A stretch of DNA of 45,106 bases from an uncultured Bacteroidaceae bacterium (lineage in GTDB: Bacteria > Bacteroidota > Bacteroidia > Bacteroidales > GCA-2748055). The stretch spans positions 1 to 45,106 of the forward strand of contig CAZOXI010000001.1 in assembly GCA_964583445.1 (NCBI GenBank), written 5' to 3'. The notes beneath the pieces are model-generated. The model was given only the letters and a program-made list of their open reading frames with translations, did not search any database and was not told where the DNA came from. Each line of letters begins with the position of its first letter. Position 1 is the first letter of the stretch. The position numbers and the translations under genes were made by a program. This document shows, piece after piece, positions 10,358 through 16,580 of the stretch.

Positions 10358-10936
10358 ATGAAGAGCTTTTCAGATGAAGATATCATACTTGGCCTTAGAA
10401 AGCGGGACAACCAGGTGATCCAGTTCATCTACAAAAATGATTTCGGTAAGATAAGTGCGTTGATCACCAACAACAACGGATCTGATGATGATTCAGAGGA
10501 TGTCTTCCAGGAGGCGTTGATCATTATTTTCAAGCGATTACGTGAAGAGCCCGATTTTGAACTCACCAGTACCTTCAGTACCTATTTATATTCGGTTGCC
10601 CGCTTGATCTGGCTGAAGAAGCTGCGTGATACGAAGAAGATGGAGGTCACCGAGCTGAAGCGGGAGATGGAGGATTACATTGAATTCGAAGAGCCTCCTC
10701 CTGTCGCAGACAAGGACTTGCGCCTGGCGGTATACCAGCGTAACCTGAAGCTGATCCCCGAAGATTGTCAGAAAATCCTCACCTTAACGGCCAGGGATGT
10801 TGCCGCAAAGGATATTGCGGAGAAGCTGGGTTTCAGGAGTGATTCGTATGTGCGCAAGAGAAGACATTTCTGCAAAGAGTTTCTCGTGAACAGAATCAAG
10901 GAAGACAAGGAGTACCAGGCGTTGATTGAAGATTGA
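10358..10936 (+). CDS. RNA polymerase sigma-70 family factor, ECF-like
   Basis: 192 aa. Region 2-like DSEDVFQEALIIIFKRL...TYLYSVARLIWLKKLR and region 4 HTH (CQKILTLTARDVAAKDIAEKLGFRSDSYVRKRRHFC). Confidence 0.8.
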   Translation: MKSFSDEDIILGLRKRDNQVIQFIYKNDFGKISALITNNNGSDDDSEDVFQEALIIIFKRLREEPDFELTSTFSTYLYSVARLIWLKKLRDTKKMEVTELKREMEDYIEFEEPPPVADKDLRLAVYQRNLKLIPEDCQKILTLTARDVAAKDIAEKLGFRSDSYVRKRRHFCKEFLVNRIKEDKEYQALIED

Positions 10937-10974: not shown

Positions 10975-13821
10975 TTACTTTCTTTTTACCAGGGCTTTCC
11001 TGATTTGTTTCCTGTAGATCACTCCTAAAACAATAATTGTAAATAACACCAGGATCAGCACCAGGTAGGATGATGCTGAGGTGGTATAGAGGGGTGTGTT
11101 ATCGCCCACCATCAGGAATGCAGACCAGAAGTAGGGATTTGCTTTCAGGTTGTCCGACGAATTGATATAATCGATCTTCGCCTGTCGCAGTGCTTTTTTC
11201 TTGCTTGATCCCTTCTTCAGGTTTTCATAGAAGTTGCTCATCAGTTCTGCACTGGAGAGGTCTGAAACCTGCCAGAGGGTCATAACGATACTTGGACACC
11301 CGGCATAGATAAATCCGCGTGCCATGCTCATCATTCCTTCCCCTTTTTGCATTTTTCCAAAGCCGCTGCTGCACGAGCTGAGCACCACCATGTCGGCATT
11401 CAGTGGCAGGTTGTATATTTCATACGTAAACAGGTCATGGTCCTGCGTCGTGTCGCTGAAGTTCCTGGTGAAAGCCAGTTTGGAGTACATCGGATTTTCG
11501 TCATCCATGATCGTATGCATCGCCAGGTGCAGCACCGAGTAATCAGATGCCAGTGCCTTGAAATTTGCTTCTGATGCTGCAGAATCGAGGTAGATATCTG
11601 CCGTCACTGTGTTAGAGATGTTCTTCACCTCTTCTTCTGCACCCGGCAGTGGCATCAGGAAATCGCGTTCTGACTGTCGGTTCCAGATGGATTGCAGCTC
11701 TTCATCCAGCAGGTTCTGATATTCGGGAGCGAATGCAAGCACTTTGTTATTGGGGGATTTGGTCCGGATCCGCTCGCTGAACAGCAGGGTAGAGGAGTAG
11801 GAGTACCCCACTGAAAGGTCGTATATGAGATAGGGCAGGTTCCTGTAATTGGGGCGGGTATCGTCGAAATCGCTGCTTGTCAGAAATGATTCAAAGGGCA
11901 GGTACATGATTGCGCCGTCGGGCACAAAGGTGATCTCCCGGCTATCCGTCACCTCCAGCACCGGTGCCACCAGGATATCGTAGAAGTATTTGGCCAGTGC
12001 CGTGTAGTTTTGAAAGGTTTGGTGCACATCATTGCTGAAATCCTGGTTCTGCAGCAGCGAGAAGTAGTCGAAGCACAGTTGAGGAAAAAGTGAATCTACA
12101 GGCTCCGTAAGGACTTCGATGTTCTCTTTATCGATCACAAATGTCGTAAGAATGGAATCTGACAGGACGTACTCGACGAGGCATTCTTTGTGATTTAAAT
12201 GATCCTGTATCTGTTTCGGTGCAATAAAGTCTTGGCTATATTTTAAATTAAAATAGTTTGGAAAATTATTTTCAAGAGAATCTAATAACAAATTGTATCT
12301 ATTCTTTATTTTTAAATAGGATTGATTAAAACTTGCAATAATTTTTTCGTTTGGATTTTCTTCGGCTCTTTCTTTATAAATTAATTCAGATAGGTGATTT
12401 AATTCCTTTTTTAATGAGTCTTCAAGAGTTTTTAAATTATTGGGTAGATCAGAAAATTTTATTGCCTCACCACTTTTAATTTCAGAATATAATGAAAAAG
12501 CTTTCATGTTTTCTGCATACAAAAAGGCTTTGAATAAATATTTTACATCCTCAGTTGTTTTATATAATCTAACAGCTACATCAATAGCTTCGTGAATTAT
12601 CGATATACTGGTACTAGATTCAATAAATATACTTTCTTCATTGCGCATATGAAGTCTAAAGACCATTAAATACTCAATGCTTTTTGAAAAATTGTTTAGG
12701 GATTCAATTAAATCATCTAGATTGTTGTTTTGTGCATATAATTTTAGAGAAGCGTTACCGTAAAGTCTATGATAGTCGATAATTGTTCTATTAAAAGATT
12801 GTTCATTTAAAATGTTTTGGGCAGGATCTGAATTTTCAATGTTAAACTCCAAATTACTAAATCCATCAGATAACCAATCTATACAGCTTATATAGTCATT
12901 CTTCAAATAGTGTATTTGTCCAATTAAAAGGTAAGTCTGATATAGTTTTTCAAAATGAGTAGTTTTGCCGCTTTCCTTGTATTTAATATTCTCTAATAAA
13001 TAAGCAAGAGCTCTGTTAAGATCTCCTAATTTTGTATAAATAGAGGCTGCTCTAAAATTATAAATCAACAAATACTTATACTTACTTTTGAGATTTTTAT
13101 CATAGATTTCCTTTGCTAATCTAGTTTGGTCTAAAGCTTTCAAGTAATAATATTCATCTTCTGAATAATCACCTTTATTTTGATAAGCTTCAGCTAAAAA
13201 CATATGCTTATTGAACAGAAGGTCATTAACTAGTTCTCTTTGTTCTTGATTAAGATTATTATCCTTTATATCTAGACTGCTCAAGATATCAATTGCTTCA
13301 TCATTTCTGTTTTGCTCAACTAAAATATTTCCTATATTGACATAAACCTGCGCGTATTGATATTTATCTGTAGTCTGTTTATTTTCAAAAAATTCTAAAC
13401 AATATCTATAGTAAAGTTCTGCTTCTTTATAGTCTGAGTAATTAAAATAGATGTTTGCCTTTGTATTATAGATATAACCCAAATAAGGAGAGTTCGGATT
13501 GTTTAAGATAAAATATTTCTCAGCTAAATTTAGATGATGTAAAGCCTTTTTGTAGTTATTTTTGTTTCTATATACGACTCCTAAATTAGCATTTGTTATT
13601 ACTGTATTTTCATCATTAACACCATAATAAGCTTTTTGATACTGTAATATCTTATTATAGTAGTACTCGGCACTATCATATTGTCCAGCATTATAGAATT
13701 TAAAAGCTAGTGTATCATAACTCTTAATCGTTCTGCTTCTAAAGATTGAATCCTGATTCTGTGCATTAGAGTTAATACAGAGAAATGATGTCAGTACTAA
13801 TATAGATAATACTTTTTCCAT
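10975..13821 (-). CDS. TPR-repeat / CHAT (caspase-like) domain protein with signal peptide and C-terminal TM anchor
   Basis: 948 aa. Signal peptide MEKVLSILVLTSFLCINSNAQ, then about 540 aa of Y/N/K-rich TPR-like repeats. The CHAT domain has an intact His (LHLAMHT) and Cys (VVLSSCSSG) dyad. C-terminal helix YLVLILVLFTIIVLGVIY followed by a basic tail. Confidence 0.9.
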   Translation of the reverse strand: MEKVLSILVLTSFLCINSNAQNQDSIFRSRTIKSYDTLAFKFYNAGQYDSAEYYYNKILQYQKAYYGVNDENTVITNANLGVVYRNKNNYKKALHHLNLAEKYFILNNPNSPYLGYIYNTKANIYFNYSDYKEAELYYRYCLEFFENKQTTDKYQYAQVYVNIGNILVEQNRNDEAIDILSSLDIKDNNLNQEQRELVNDLLFNKHMFLAEAYQNKGDYSEDEYYYLKALDQTRLAKEIYDKNLKSKYKYLLIYNFRAASIYTKLGDLNRALAYLLENIKYKESGKTTHFEKLYQTYLLIGQIHYLKNDYISCIDWLSDGFSNLEFNIENSDPAQNILNEQSFNRTIIDYHRLYGNASLKLYAQNNNLDDLIESLNNFSKSIEYLMVFRLHMRNEESIFIESSTSISIIHEAIDVAVRLYKTTEDVKYLFKAFLYAENMKAFSLYSEIKSGEAIKFSDLPNNLKTLEDSLKKELNHLSELIYKERAEENPNEKIIASFNQSYLKIKNRYNLLLDSLENNFPNYFNLKYSQDFIAPKQIQDHLNHKECLVEYVLSDSILTTFVIDKENIEVLTEPVDSLFPQLCFDYFSLLQNQDFSNDVHQTFQNYTALAKYFYDILVAPVLEVTDSREITFVPDGAIMYLPFESFLTSSDFDDTRPNYRNLPYLIYDLSVGYSYSSTLLFSERIRTKSPNNKVLAFAPEYQNLLDEELQSIWNRQSERDFLMPLPGAEEEVKNISNTVTADIYLDSAASEANFKALASDYSVLHLAMHTIMDDENPMYSKLAFTRNFSDTTQDHDLFTYEIYNLPLNADMVVLSSCSSGFGKMQKGEGMMSMARGFIYAGCPSIVMTLWQVSDLSSAELMSNFYENLKKGSSKKKALRQAKIDYINSSDNLKANPYFWSAFLMVGDNTPLYTTSASSYLVLILVLFTIIVLGVIYRKQIRKALVKRK

Positions 13822-14025
13822 CTATAAAATATTCAAGCTGGTATAAACATTGCAGCAAGGTAATAGAAAATTGTTATTTTTTCAAAAAATTAAATACCAC
13901 ATAGTCAATGAGTTATAAAATTAATTTCACTTTTTTTTATTTTTTTGGGTAACGTTTTCTGGTGATTTGGAATAAAGGGTTGAACGATCAACAAAACAAG
14001 TATTAACCCTAATTGAAAAAACGTC

Positions 14026-14142
14026 ATGAAAACTTCAAAAACAAACATCGAGAATTTTGCAATTGATGCAATGACCCAGGAAGAAATGAATTTTTTAACA
14101 GGTGGTGGAGAACCTATTGATATGATTATTCCTCCCAGGTAG
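14026..14142 (+). CDS. 38-aa double-glycine-leader peptide precursor (not in the ORF track)
   Basis: MKTSKTNIENFAIDAMTQEEMNFLTGG/GEPIDMIIPPR. Gly at -1/-2, hydrophobic residues at -4, -7, -12 and -15, and Glu at -8 fit the GG-leader consensus. ATG start, TAG stop. Confidence 0.55.
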   Translation: MKTSKTNIENFAIDAMTQEEMNFLTGGGEPIDMIIPPR

Positions 14143-14204
14143 TAAAAAATTCCAGAAGCTGTTTATAAATTGATTCAGCAAATTGAGATAATACTTCGAT
14201 ATTA

Positions 14205-14860
14205 CTCAACGGAAACTATCCAGTCACGGAAACGTCCGGGCTGTAGCAAACAAGGAAACAAGTACCGGTGGCATACGGTGTGTGCGGAGCCGGATGACAT
14301 ACACTCAGTCATGAGATGAAGCAGACCGCTGCTATTCAAAGGTGGAGTCGAACGAGCCGGACCAGGAAACGAACTGGTAAGGTAGCATTTCGGAACACCC
14401 GGGGATACACGGAACTTGCGGAAGATGATCCAGATCATGAAGCTGGGAAGGAACGCGACCAGGCATTGAAGCGTGCCGGAAGTGCGAAGCTCAGGAGGAG
14501 CATGTGGACAGGAAAATCAGGATGACCAACAAATGGAACCTGTATACCCCCCTGGCACACAACCCTCTGAAAGTGCCGCGAATAAATGCACGCAGGGATC
14601 CATACAATGGAGCCAGAGATGCCCGATAGCGCAAAGCTAAGAAAGAGCAGCGAACGGGAGCAGTCCGGGGAATCAGAAAATGAAACTGACGGATGCCCGA
14701 AGATCGCAACGCTCAGTCAACGCTGAGAATCTGGCAGAAAAGAGACGGAACATAAGCTCAGACTTCTGAATACCATACCGTTACCGGGAGAGATCCAGGT
14801 AAACCGATGTAGGATGAACAGCGAGCTGATCATTGACAACCTATTATGAGAGAATATTTA
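14205..14860 (+). ncRNA. candidate long noncoding/leader RNA: ORF-poor, purine-rich, GGA/GGAAC-dense block
   Basis: No ORF longer than 78 aa on either strand, and none looks protein-like. I counted 29 GGA trinucleotides and 9 GGAA(A)C motifs, all on the plus strand. G+C is about 57% in a sampled 60-nt line, against about 20% in the adjacent block. Several short hairpins are present, e.g. ATGAT-ccag-ATCAT and CTCAG-tcaacg-CTGAG. Confidence 0.3.
14211..14236 (+). promoter_or_regulatory. candidate ECF-type promoter GGAAAC-N16-CGTC
   Basis: GGAAAC at 14211-14216, a 16-nt spacer, then CGTC at 14233-14236. It sits at the left edge of the purine-rich block, upstream of the anti-sigma-like gene. Confidence 0.3.
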
Positions 14861-14882
14861 TGAAAAACCGATACATATAGTT

Positions 14883-15665
14883 ATGAAACGAGACAGGCAC
14901 ATTATCCAGAAGTACCTCGATCATGACCTATCAGACAAGGACATGAAGAGGTTCGAAGCGGATCTTGAAAGCAGTCCCGAGCTTCAGGCAGACCTGGGAT
15001 TACACCAGGAGATTGATGAAGCACTGGCCGATACAGAAGTATTGAGCTTTAGGGATCAGCTGACGGATCTGCGGAAAGAGACCAAGAAGGACGGAAAGAA
15101 TGCGAAAGCACCGATCCGTTTCAACAAGCCCTGGCATTATGCTGCATCAGCAGCCATTGCCCTGATCCTGGCCATCGGCCTTGCTTCAGTACTTGACAGA
15201 CCACTGAGCAATAAGGATTTGCTTAAAAAGTATTACAAACCTTACGAGGTGGCACTGATGAACAGGTCGCTCAACGAAAATTTGACGACAGCGGAAAACA
15301 TGATGGCAGAGACCTACCTCACTAAGGCCAGCCTTTTCTACCAGGAAGGGGATTTCAAAAATGCCATCGAGCACTTTGAGCTGTTCCTCGAGAACCAGCC
15401 GAACGATGCCGGCGCACAACTTTACCTCGGTATCTCTTTTTACGAAGAGGACAGGTATCACGATGCAGAAGCATCACTGACCAAAGTGGTCGATCACCAG
15501 GACAACCTATATGTCGATAAGGCAGAATGGTACCTGGGACTCTGTTACCTGGCACTGAACGAGAATGACCTCGCACGCAGAAAGTTTGCAGGACTCGCAT
15601 CAGGGAACAGTGACAAGGCTGAAGAAGCGAAGCAGTTATTGCGCAAGATCAAGGTGCGTGATTAA
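14883..15665 (+). CDS. anti-sigma-factor-like single-pass membrane protein with extracytoplasmic TPR domain
   Basis: The N-terminus resembles anti-sigma domains (IQKYLDHDLSDKDMKRFEADLESSPELQADL). One TM helix (AASAAIALILAIGLASVL), then TPR repeats (YQEGDFKNAIEHFELFLENQPNDAGAQLYLGISFYEEDRYHDA). Confidence 0.7.
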   Translation: MKRDRHIIQKYLDHDLSDKDMKRFEADLESSPELQADLGLHQEIDEALADTEVLSFRDQLTDLRKETKKDGKNAKAPIRFNKPWHYAASAAIALILAIGLASVLDRPLSNKDLLKKYYKPYEVALMNRSLNENLTTAENMMAETYLTKASLFYQEGDFKNAIEHFELFLENQPNDAGAQLYLGISFYEEDRYHDAEASLTKVVDHQDNLYVDKAEWYLGLCYLALNENDLARRKFAGLASGNSDKAEEAKQLLRKIKVRD

Positions 15666-15725: not shown

Positions 15726-16580
15726 ATGGACGAAAACCCAACATACGAGGAGTTGATGGCTGCAAACCGTAAGCTTAGGGATAAGGTGGATTGGCTGGAA
15801 GGCGTCTACCACACTCACCGCGATGCCGGGCTGCAGGTCAGATCAAGGTTCCTGTCCAATATCACACACGAGATCAGGACACCCATGAACGCGATCCTCG
15901 GGTTTTCAGACCTGCTGACAAACAGTTCTCTTACAGACAGCGAGCGGGAGGAATATATTGAGTACATCTCCCACAACAGTAAAACGCTCTTAAAAATAAT
16001 GGATAACATCATCGACCTGACACTCCTCGAGACTGATAATCTCGAAATGAAAAAGGAGGAGGTCTTCGCCGAAGACCTGTTCAGGGAGATCTACGAGTTC
16101 TATAACTCGTAGGTCGTCAGGGGGATGAGTTACAGGGTGGCGCTTCTGATGACGACACCCACCAGGTACAGACGGATCACAGTCGACGCTGATGGCTACA
16201 GGCTGCACAGGATCCTCGACAACCTGGTCAACAACGCGATCTCCCAACAGTCAAAGGGGGTGGTCGAAATGAAGATGGATATCAAGGATGAGAAAAAAGT
16301 CTTTTTTACCATCGTCAGCGAGAGAAATGAGCTGCTCGAAGAAAGAGCCCAAATGATCTTTGAAAATAATGGTGACACGGATGACTGGCACAATCACCTC
16401 GATGCCACGGGCCTGGCCTACAAGCTGGCACGTGACCTGGCAAAAGCCATGGGTGGTTCTGTCAGACTGGTGCAGGTAGACGAGAAAAGAATCGGCGTGT
16501 GCATGGAACTACCGGTAAAGAAAATCGGTATTGCCCATAAGAAAGACACCCGAAAGAAGATATCCACGCTGTTGAATTAA
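15726..16580 (+). pseudogene. sensor-less histidine kinase interrupted by an in-frame TAG (16110-16112), with a degenerate ATP-binding domain
   Basis: ORFs 15726-16112 and 16125-16580 share one frame. The first carries a coiled-coil and an H-box (FLSNITHEIRTPMNAILGFSDLL). The second carries an N-box (HRILDNLVNNAI) but no DxGxG G1 box. Confidence 0.7.

Follow-up and report, generated by a model that had tools for sequence, protein, structure and literature searches.

What is the long stretch without protein-coding potential that separates a small peptide gene from the signaling genes downstream of it in a locus of an uncultured member of the Bacteroidaceae? The stretch, positions 14205-14882 on the + strand, belongs to contig CAZOXI010000001.1 of a metagenome-assembled genome that is 81% complete; the entire contig, 45,106 nucleotides (nt) in length, was analyzed and is referred to here as the window. 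On its left lies the gene of a 38-amino acid peptide with a double-glycine (GG) leader (14026-14142, +), which is conserved in all loci that we collected, and on its right is the gene of an anti-sigma-like TPR protein (14883-15665, +, recognized from Pfam and synteny). An initial annotation had offered three readings of the block: a structured or protein-titrating RNA, an unusually long leader of the anti-sigma/kinase operon, or the decayed remains of a displaced gene. Comparison with related loci indicates that the block is probably a transcribed, structured non-coding region of the + strand. With less assurance, we lean toward the view that it acts in cis as the intercistronic leader RNA of the unit formed by the peptide, TPR, and kinase genes.

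Use of the TPR protein as a query against genome and metagenome collections yielded 28 loci. The order of the unit is fixed: a CHAT protease gene (−) comes first, then the GG-leader peptide gene (+), the spacer, and the genes of the TPR anti-sigma-like protein (+) and the histidine kinase (+), an order that is identical in about 25 loci, wherever the contig reaches far enough. A spacer between the peptide and TPR genes is present in every locus and ranges in length from 195 to 743 nt. The longest are those of the window's own clade (the window, G012/L019, G009/L020, and L034/L035), at 677-743 nt in four sequences. A three-way alignment revealed islands of conservation in the block, the strongest at approximately 14216-14335. 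Within it lies a core of around 107 nt (14216-14322), which, on the evidence of covariation, is a new, genus-restricted RNA motif without a match in Rfam.

The core begins with a hairpin, H1 (14221-14243, +), in which CAGUC-A-CGGA and UCCG-GGCUG enclose an AACG loop; the GGAAAC word at 14228 lies in the loop. Five of its nine pairs are changed on both sides among the loci, and it contains G·U pairs that are workable on the + strand only. H1 is followed by an A-rich, single-stranded linker (14244-14264, +), recognized from the alignments, with a conserved GGAAA word (GGAAAC at 14254), and then by a second hairpin, H2 (14265-14293, +), supported by covariation and by minimum free energy (MFE) folds. 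The outer stem of H2 is CCGG/CCGG; an internal loop follows, and then an inner stem of 5-9 bp that differs by lineage yet stays complementary (GCAUAC/GURUGC, GUAUGCA/UGCAUAC, GUAUA/UAUAC, GCACU/AGUGC, ACAUGUAAG/CUUACAUGU, and GCUGAA/UUCAGC). Beyond it is the ACAUAC tail (ACAUACACUCAG.CAUGA; 14294-14333, +), which is conserved in primary sequence. In the window's clade, the tail carries helix H3 (AUGAC/GUCAU) and then H4 (AGCAG/CUGCU), both of them invariant in the four-sequence alignment. H1 also appears in independent single-sequence MFE folds of six other loci (L020, L034, L023, L024, L026, and L038), as does H2 in many.

The homologous regions were examined for covariation, and the pairs of the core proved to be maintained by compensatory changes. 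With the caveat that the alignment was fitted to the covariance model, both partners have changed in 9 of the 19 pairs of H1 and H2, covariation scores 0.314 compared with 0.198 in shuffled alignments (none of 500 scoring as high), and 85.9% of alignment cells pair, against 23-41% (at most 41.5%) when the partners are slid. The model was built from 12 sequences and recovers 17 instances among the collected loci. In 9 of the 13 genomes of the genus it has exactly one match per genome, always at the peptide/TPR locus, and there are none in 78 genomes from 13 other genera that make up the rest of the family. More distant loci, here termed group B, give sub-threshold matches at the expected place (L041 and L039, E 0.24 and 1.2) that align H2, the homology of which in this group rests on position and manual inspection. 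Between the window and G009, the core has diverged by 0.12-0.16, against 0.4-0.7 in the linkers that surround it. No known family accounts for the element: at gathering score Rfam returned nothing, either for the window or for 17 related loci, there were only chance-level matches outside the block (E 7-9) when Rfam 15 was searched at E ≤ 10 over 13800-15100, and a scan for tRNA and tmRNA gave no match. A switch, in which the ACAUAC tail would compete with a strand of H2 or pair with the TPR start region, was also considered; such pairings are possible in some loci but inconsistent across lineages, and we do not claim one.

How far does structure extend beyond the core? The four long spacers were folded together with RNAalifold, and the result was compared with column-shuffled alignments on each strand, over the whole length and by segment. 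The consensus fold has a z-score of −7.2 on the + strand versus −5.1 on the − strand. The core segment (14216-14340) gives −4.6 versus −1.8, and the difference is greatest at 14420-14517, with −4.8 versus −0.5; it is smaller at 14736-14837 (−4.8 versus −3.6), and at 14587-14735 the strands are level (−2.7 versus −2.9). A preference for the + strand recurs in other clades, with values of −5.3 versus −3.2 for L024/L026 and −3.1 versus −1.7 for four group B loci. Folding of a single sequence, the 701-nt block, gave z-scores of −1.5 (+) and −0.3 (−) and is uninformative alone.

Two further stretches of the + strand are probable structured elements, judging from these folds and from paired changes. 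The first, module 2 (14436-14504), consists of nested helices (14436-39/14501-04, 14443-47/14490-97, and 14454-66/14473-84) in which five pairs are changed on both sides between two deep lineages. The second, module 3 (14755-14827), has an outer AGCUC/GAGCU helix enclosing UUACC(G)GGA and UCC(A)GGUAA around a GAGA loop, and its pair 14785/14798 has changed from C-G to A-U. Between them, at 14649-14713 (+), are weakly supported helices (14649-52/14710-13, 14657-59/14664-66, 14667-69/14696-98, and 14673-75/14681-83) with compensatory changes and no strand preference in z-score. The remaining segments lie on the same strand. Immediately after the peptide stop codon is an AT-rich, variable segment (14143-14215) that diverges from G009 by 0.43-0.55, with gaps, and has a RNAalifold z-score of about 0 and no conserved fold. 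A variable, indel-prone segment at 14341-14430, which holds the GGAA(A)C words at 14365, 14392, and 14411, shows divergence of 0.3-0.5, a 40-nt indel relative to G009, and a z-score of −0.6; the sole fold shared there is a small hairpin in which CAG and CUG flank a loop (14363-14376). A clade-specific insertion (14506-14590, with GGAAC at 14535) is missing from the G009/L034 lineage, giving about 75 gap columns and a divergence of 0.5-0.7. Lastly, the A/U-rich region just upstream of the TPR start codon (14838-14882; ..ACATGRAAWTTAA..ATA.TGATATG), the presumed translation initiation region, is partly conserved in a 20-locus alignment. The predicted leader RNA would be modular, with a genus-wide core followed, in the window's clade, by structured modules at 14436-14504 and 14755-14827 that are joined by fast-evolving, indel-prone linkers.

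The start of the TPR gene has a structured neighbor in group B as well. There (L028, positions 2950-2975, L039, and L041), a covarying hairpin, with variants GACAGC..GCUGUC, GGCAAC..GUUGUC, and GACAAC..GUUGUC, stands right before a TTGACA word, and a conserved ACATGRAATTTAAC stretch is found upstream of the TPR start. In the window, the AGCUC/GAGCU helix ends at the same relative position before ATTGACA (14823-14836).

Composition is a second line of evidence on the strand. The 678 nt of the block comprise A229 G190 C152 T107, a GC fraction of 0.50 and a purine fraction of 0.62. The initial annotation had described it as unlike ordinary intergenic DNA, which is borne out by the crude intergenic stretches of the genome, where GC is 0.39±0.06 and the purine fraction of the transcribed strand is 0.51±0.05. 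Only about 0.9% of 600-nt windows of the genome reach a purine fraction of 0.61 or more, and almost all of these are coding. All 18 of the spacers examined have more A than T and more G than C on the + strand, and 78-nt windows in which C exceeds G account for 0-29% per spacer versus 48% genome-wide. The skew has the same sign as that of the neighboring sense strands but is stronger, and both it and a GC of about 0.50 are retained in the two deep lineages despite sequence turnover. Such a skew fits a transcribed + strand. The block has no tandem or strong internal repeats of note. Elsewhere in the genome, six contigs carry other blocks on the 600-nt scale with strong purine/pyrimidine strand skew and short open reading frames (ORFs; about 96-118 amino acids from stop to stop), which could be non-coding RNAs or RNA genes (C34:11695-12429, C609:2085-2769, C10:3883-4726, C456:143-742, C468:1015-1640, and C495:1761-2449).

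From where would such a strand be transcribed? The region upstream of the peptide gene, including its 5′ untranslated region (UTR), has the layout GGGTAACGTTT-N~10-GGAATAAAGGGTTGAACGATCAACAAAACAAGTATTAACCCTAATT..AAAACGTCATG ... ATG (13947-14025, +) and is nearly invariant in a 17-locus alignment, although the flanking proteins are only 60-70% identical. A transcription unit that includes the spacer likely starts here. The GGGTAACGTTT word occurs only once in the window, and a helix in this region shows covariation, with GGGUU/AACCC replaced by GGGAU/AUCCC in a second clade; the region may serve as a special promoter, as a 5′ leader that would be a second structured RNA, or as both. Between 13800 and 15000, the + strand contains no site resembling an intrinsic terminator, that is, a G+C-rich hairpin with a U-tract, and the sequence after H1 and H2 is A-rich or mixed, without a U-tract. 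The Bacteroidetes −7 box (TAnnTTTG) was not found in 17 of 18 spacers, and scans for σ70-type promoters inside the spacers gave no support for one. The invariant upstream region and the lack of a terminator and of the −7 box, together with the poor conservation of a promoter layout, for sigma factors of the extracytoplasmic function (ECF) type, that is considered below, favor read-through from the peptide promoter.

Of the initial proposals, that of a long leader of the anti-sigma/kinase operon is therefore the one favored by synteny, strand, missing terminators and −7 boxes, and sense-like composition, and the leader would belong to an operon that begins with the peptide gene. Under this reading, one + strand RNA would run from the peptide promoter through the spacer into the TPR and kinase genes, and its fold would act in cis, setting the amount of TPR protein and kinase relative to peptide. 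RNA processing or stability, or regulated read-through, are possible routes, and a G-rich, C-poor folded stretch may escape Rho termination while being both long and untranslated.

Stem-loops placed after the precursor-peptide gene are familiar from the operons of bacteriocins and of ribosomally synthesized and post-translationally modified peptides (RiPPs), such as nisA-nisB, where they set the ratio of peptide to downstream gene products. The resemblance is considerable: a small peptide gene is followed by conserved hairpins on the same strand and then by genes whose products are required at lower levels, a strong terminator is lacking, and structure is conserved more than sequence. The differences are that the spacer here is 195-743 nt long rather than a single hairpin, that its loop and tail sequences are conserved, that it has no U-tract, and that the downstream genes encode signaling proteins (the anti-sigma-like TPR protein and the kinase) and not enzymes of modification or export. 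As in riboswitches and the leaders cataloged by Rfam, there is a compact, covarying core of several hairpins with conserved unpaired nucleotides, upstream of genes that it possibly controls. In contrast to them, the core has neither an adjacent terminator nor a platform that would mask a start codon, its distance from the start codon varies by hundreds of nucleotides, and it is confined to a single genus.

Several observations weigh against a cis-acting leader that spans the whole spacer. The distance from the core to the TPR start varies from about 100 to 560 nt, which argues against simple masking of the start site, and no expression platform was found next to the core. Support for modules 2 and 3 comes from four sequences representing two deep lineages; moreover, structure was scored on the alignment from which it was derived, and column shuffling overstates z-scores. 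The segments 14341-14430 and 14506-14590 change at least as fast as the synonymous sites of the neighboring TPR gene (0.38 for the spacer overall versus 0.17), and much of the length of the spacer may be unconstrained. An alternative sigma factor may also use a promoter inside the spacer that is beyond the reach of consensus scans.

One possibility is that only the core is functional, as hairpins that stabilize or process the peptide mRNA at its 3′ end, and that the other 550 nt or so are neutral filler, grown by duplication and insertion within a hypervariable haplotype block, with a composition and apparent folds that serve no function. Across the spacer, 38% of aligned sites differ between the window and G009, with a further 157 gap columns, against 17% of 4-fold sites in the TPR gene, and in the linkers divergence reaches 0.4-0.7 with many indels. 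The length of the spacer varies nearly four-fold among lineages, and its GGAA(A)C sites are unconserved. The adjacent CHAT gene is saturated, with a 4-fold divergence from G009 of 0.4-0.75 (about 0.4-0.57 at the amino acid level in its TPR half), which makes the peptide/CHAT side as a whole an old, polymorphic, hypervariable haplotype block (10975-14882), with the spacer linkers evolving roughly neutrally within it. On the other side of the spacer, the TPR and DUF3127 genes diverge from G009 by just 0.17-0.20, and the divergence pattern of 10975-14882 resembles the "type" polymorphism of peptide-signaling loci. Young tandem repeats in other spacers, a 22-nt unit (AACCACATGGTACCCGGAAAGG) present 3.6 times at positions 1-80 of L022, running into the contig end, and a 16-nt unit (CAGGGATCATTGAATC) present 3.7 times at 653-710 of L041, show how spacers grow. 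Neutral filler would not, however, be expected to hold a fold as strand-specific as that of module 2, to give a similar signal in other clades, to keep its GC and purine skew so far from those of intergenic DNA in both deep lineages, or to hold its total length so nearly constant in the four long spacers. We consider this explanation unlikely, although it is one to which some weight must be given.

We find it harder to credit an independent, trans-acting non-coding RNA, large and structured or protein-binding, that works with the ECF sigma/CHAT/peptide system; we regard this as quite unlikely. Several conserved hairpins have GNRA-type loops, such as GAGA at 14790-14793, and loop and tail sequences (AACG and ACAUACACUCAG) are conserved, as might be expected of such an RNA, which would represent a new family given the lack of an Rfam match. 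However, no promoter-like or terminator-like boundaries were found, and the block, which a DNA search found to be single-copy in the genome, always lies between the same two genes and on their strand.

A particular form of this idea, that of a sponge for a GGA-binding protein, is suggested by the words that first drew attention to the block. RNAs of the CsrB/RsmZ type carry many GGA motifs in hairpin loops and thereby titrate CsrA/RsmA. Like them, the block is long and non-coding and has an excess of GGA on one strand, and some of its GGA words sit at the tops of hairpins. The word counts of the initial annotation were reproduced exactly, as were their positions: GGA occurs 29 times on the + strand and 6 times on the − strand, and there are four GGAAAC (14211, 14228, 14254, and 14365) and five GGAAC (14392, 14411, 14450, 14535, and 14747) on the + strand and none on the − strand. 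An excess of GGA is real, but the 9-10 copies that had been expected took no account of composition; in 2000 dinucleotide-preserving shuffles, the expectation is 20.0±3.0 (p≈0.0005), such that the excess is about 1.45-fold. For GGAA+C, the shuffles give 2.0±1.3 against the 9 observed (p<0.0005), and both words are enriched in the block over composition-matched controls.

The enrichment is not conserved among the relatives. In equally long spacers, GGAA+C occurs 6 times in G012, once in G009, and twice in L034, with about 2 expected, and GGA is not above shuffled expectation (26/21.5, 23/19.2, and 20/19.2 observed/expected, in the same order). In a column-by-column alignment, the GGAA(A)C site at 14228 is the sole one of the nine to persist across the four long spacers, and GGA is retained at 21 of 29 positions in G012, 10 in G009, and 8 in L034; the array is not conserved even in G012, which is 88% identical. 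A search for CsrA (PF02599) was negative for the window's genome and for all 13 genomes of the genus, of which seven are at least 90% complete, whereas control genomes were positive. On these grounds, together with the lack of an Rfam match, a GGA-type protein sponge is not supported, and what survives of the proposed structured or protein-titrating RNA is its structured half, by virtue of the covarying core and a fold that favors the + strand. On this comparison, the density of GGAA(A)C words is peculiar to the lineage, a by-product of its composition and its small GGA...UCC hairpins and not a conserved array of binding sites. There is a caution here, in that a striking enrichment in a single sequence, with nine GGAAC-type words on one strand, vanished when relatives were compared.

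A bolder version of the structured RNA would take the whole 600-700 nt as one large, modular non-coding RNA of a new class, belonging to a signaling locus of ECF sigma factor, TPR-CHAT protein, and secreted peptide. Its role could be that of a sensor, or of a scaffold through which the making of the peptide is coupled to the anti-sigma-like protein and the kinase; the two-hairpin core would be its functional center, and the domains particular to each lineage would diversify together with the strain's hypervariable peptide/CHAT "type". We view this as a long shot.

The possibility that an ECF promoter inside the block (GGAAAC-N16-CGTC, 14211-14236) starts a 5′ UTR of about 640 nt for the TPR/kinase operon is very unlikely. 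ECF promoters combine a GGAAC-type −35 with a CGT-type −10, 16-17 nt apart, and in the window and G012 both words and spacing fit this textbook layout. The −35 word is, however, missing where G009 and L034 align with it (AC---ATCC) and unrecognizable in L023, L024, L026, L038, and L031, while the CGTC lies within the loop and 3′ arm of H1. Because the H1 stem covaries and uses G·U pairs, H1 would belong to an RNA whose start lies farther upstream. With its layout confined to the window and G012 and its −10 word inside a covarying hairpin, the candidate was rejected.

That the block is a decayed protein-coding gene, or one that is read unusually, is extremely improbable: its GC and purine content resemble those of a coding sense strand in this genome, but each of the six frames is riddled with stop codons (the longest ORFs have 78, 72, and 69 amino acids, within the range given in the initial annotation) with no ORF common to relatives, substitutions fall evenly over the three codon phases in two close pairs (26/28/28 and 43/36/32, without 3-nt periodicity), indels are of 1, 2, 4, and 6 nt (2, 4, 1, 1, 1, and 1 nt in the first pair), and no match was found in the block with Pfam at E ≤ 1, elsewhere in the genome by tblastn for translated similarity, or among 1.84 billion proteins with phmmer for the longest + strand frame (115 amino acids, from G012).

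The genes around the block, assigned from Pfam and synteny, place it in a recognizable setting. An ECF-type sigma factor gene (10358-10936, +) is followed by the gene of the TPR-CHAT protein, the protease of the unit (10975-13821, −). The histidine kinase gene (15726-16580, +) comes after the TPR gene, and genes for DUF3127, FKBP, and methyltransferase proteins (−) lie beyond the kinase in the layout. The peptide has the consensus MKT..I..FA.DAMT..EMNFL.GGGEP.D.IIPP across the loci, and in one related metagenome locus (L037, 1471-1732) its gene occurs in two tandem copies. The kinase gene of the window is interrupted by a TAG at 16110-16112, which is polymorphic among strains: in a contig from run SRR7048225 that is identical apart from this, the codon is AAG (Lys) and the kinase, of 284 amino acids, is intact, and a contig from SRR7048220 has TAG, as in the window. 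A described parallel is the DdvS-DdvA module of Myxococcus xanthus, an ECF sigma factor with a TPR-CHAT anti-sigma factor (PMC11506125). There, as here, the ECF sigma gene adjoins that of a large periplasmic TPR-CHAT caspase-like protein (PMC11506125). Unlike DdvS-DdvA, the present locus adds a GG-leader peptide, a separate anti-sigma-like TPR protein, and a kinase, and its CHAT protein, which has a signal peptide and a C-terminal anchor, is the product of a gene of its own. No structured RNA has been described for DdvS/DdvA (PMC11506125), and a search of the literature for an RNA described at such loci, or for stem-loops at peptide genes, returned nothing directly relevant beyond this context.

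To our knowledge, few cis-acting RNAs are known in the Bacteroidota. Were an RNA of the kind proposed here to be at work, it would mean that a peptide-signaling locus of uncultured Bacteroidales from sediment and hypersaline environments has an RNA element dedicated to it, one that Rfam does not contain and that is positioned at the very point where signal peptide would be balanced against signal-transduction proteins. It would also provide a concrete handle on post-transcriptional control in the Bacteroidota.

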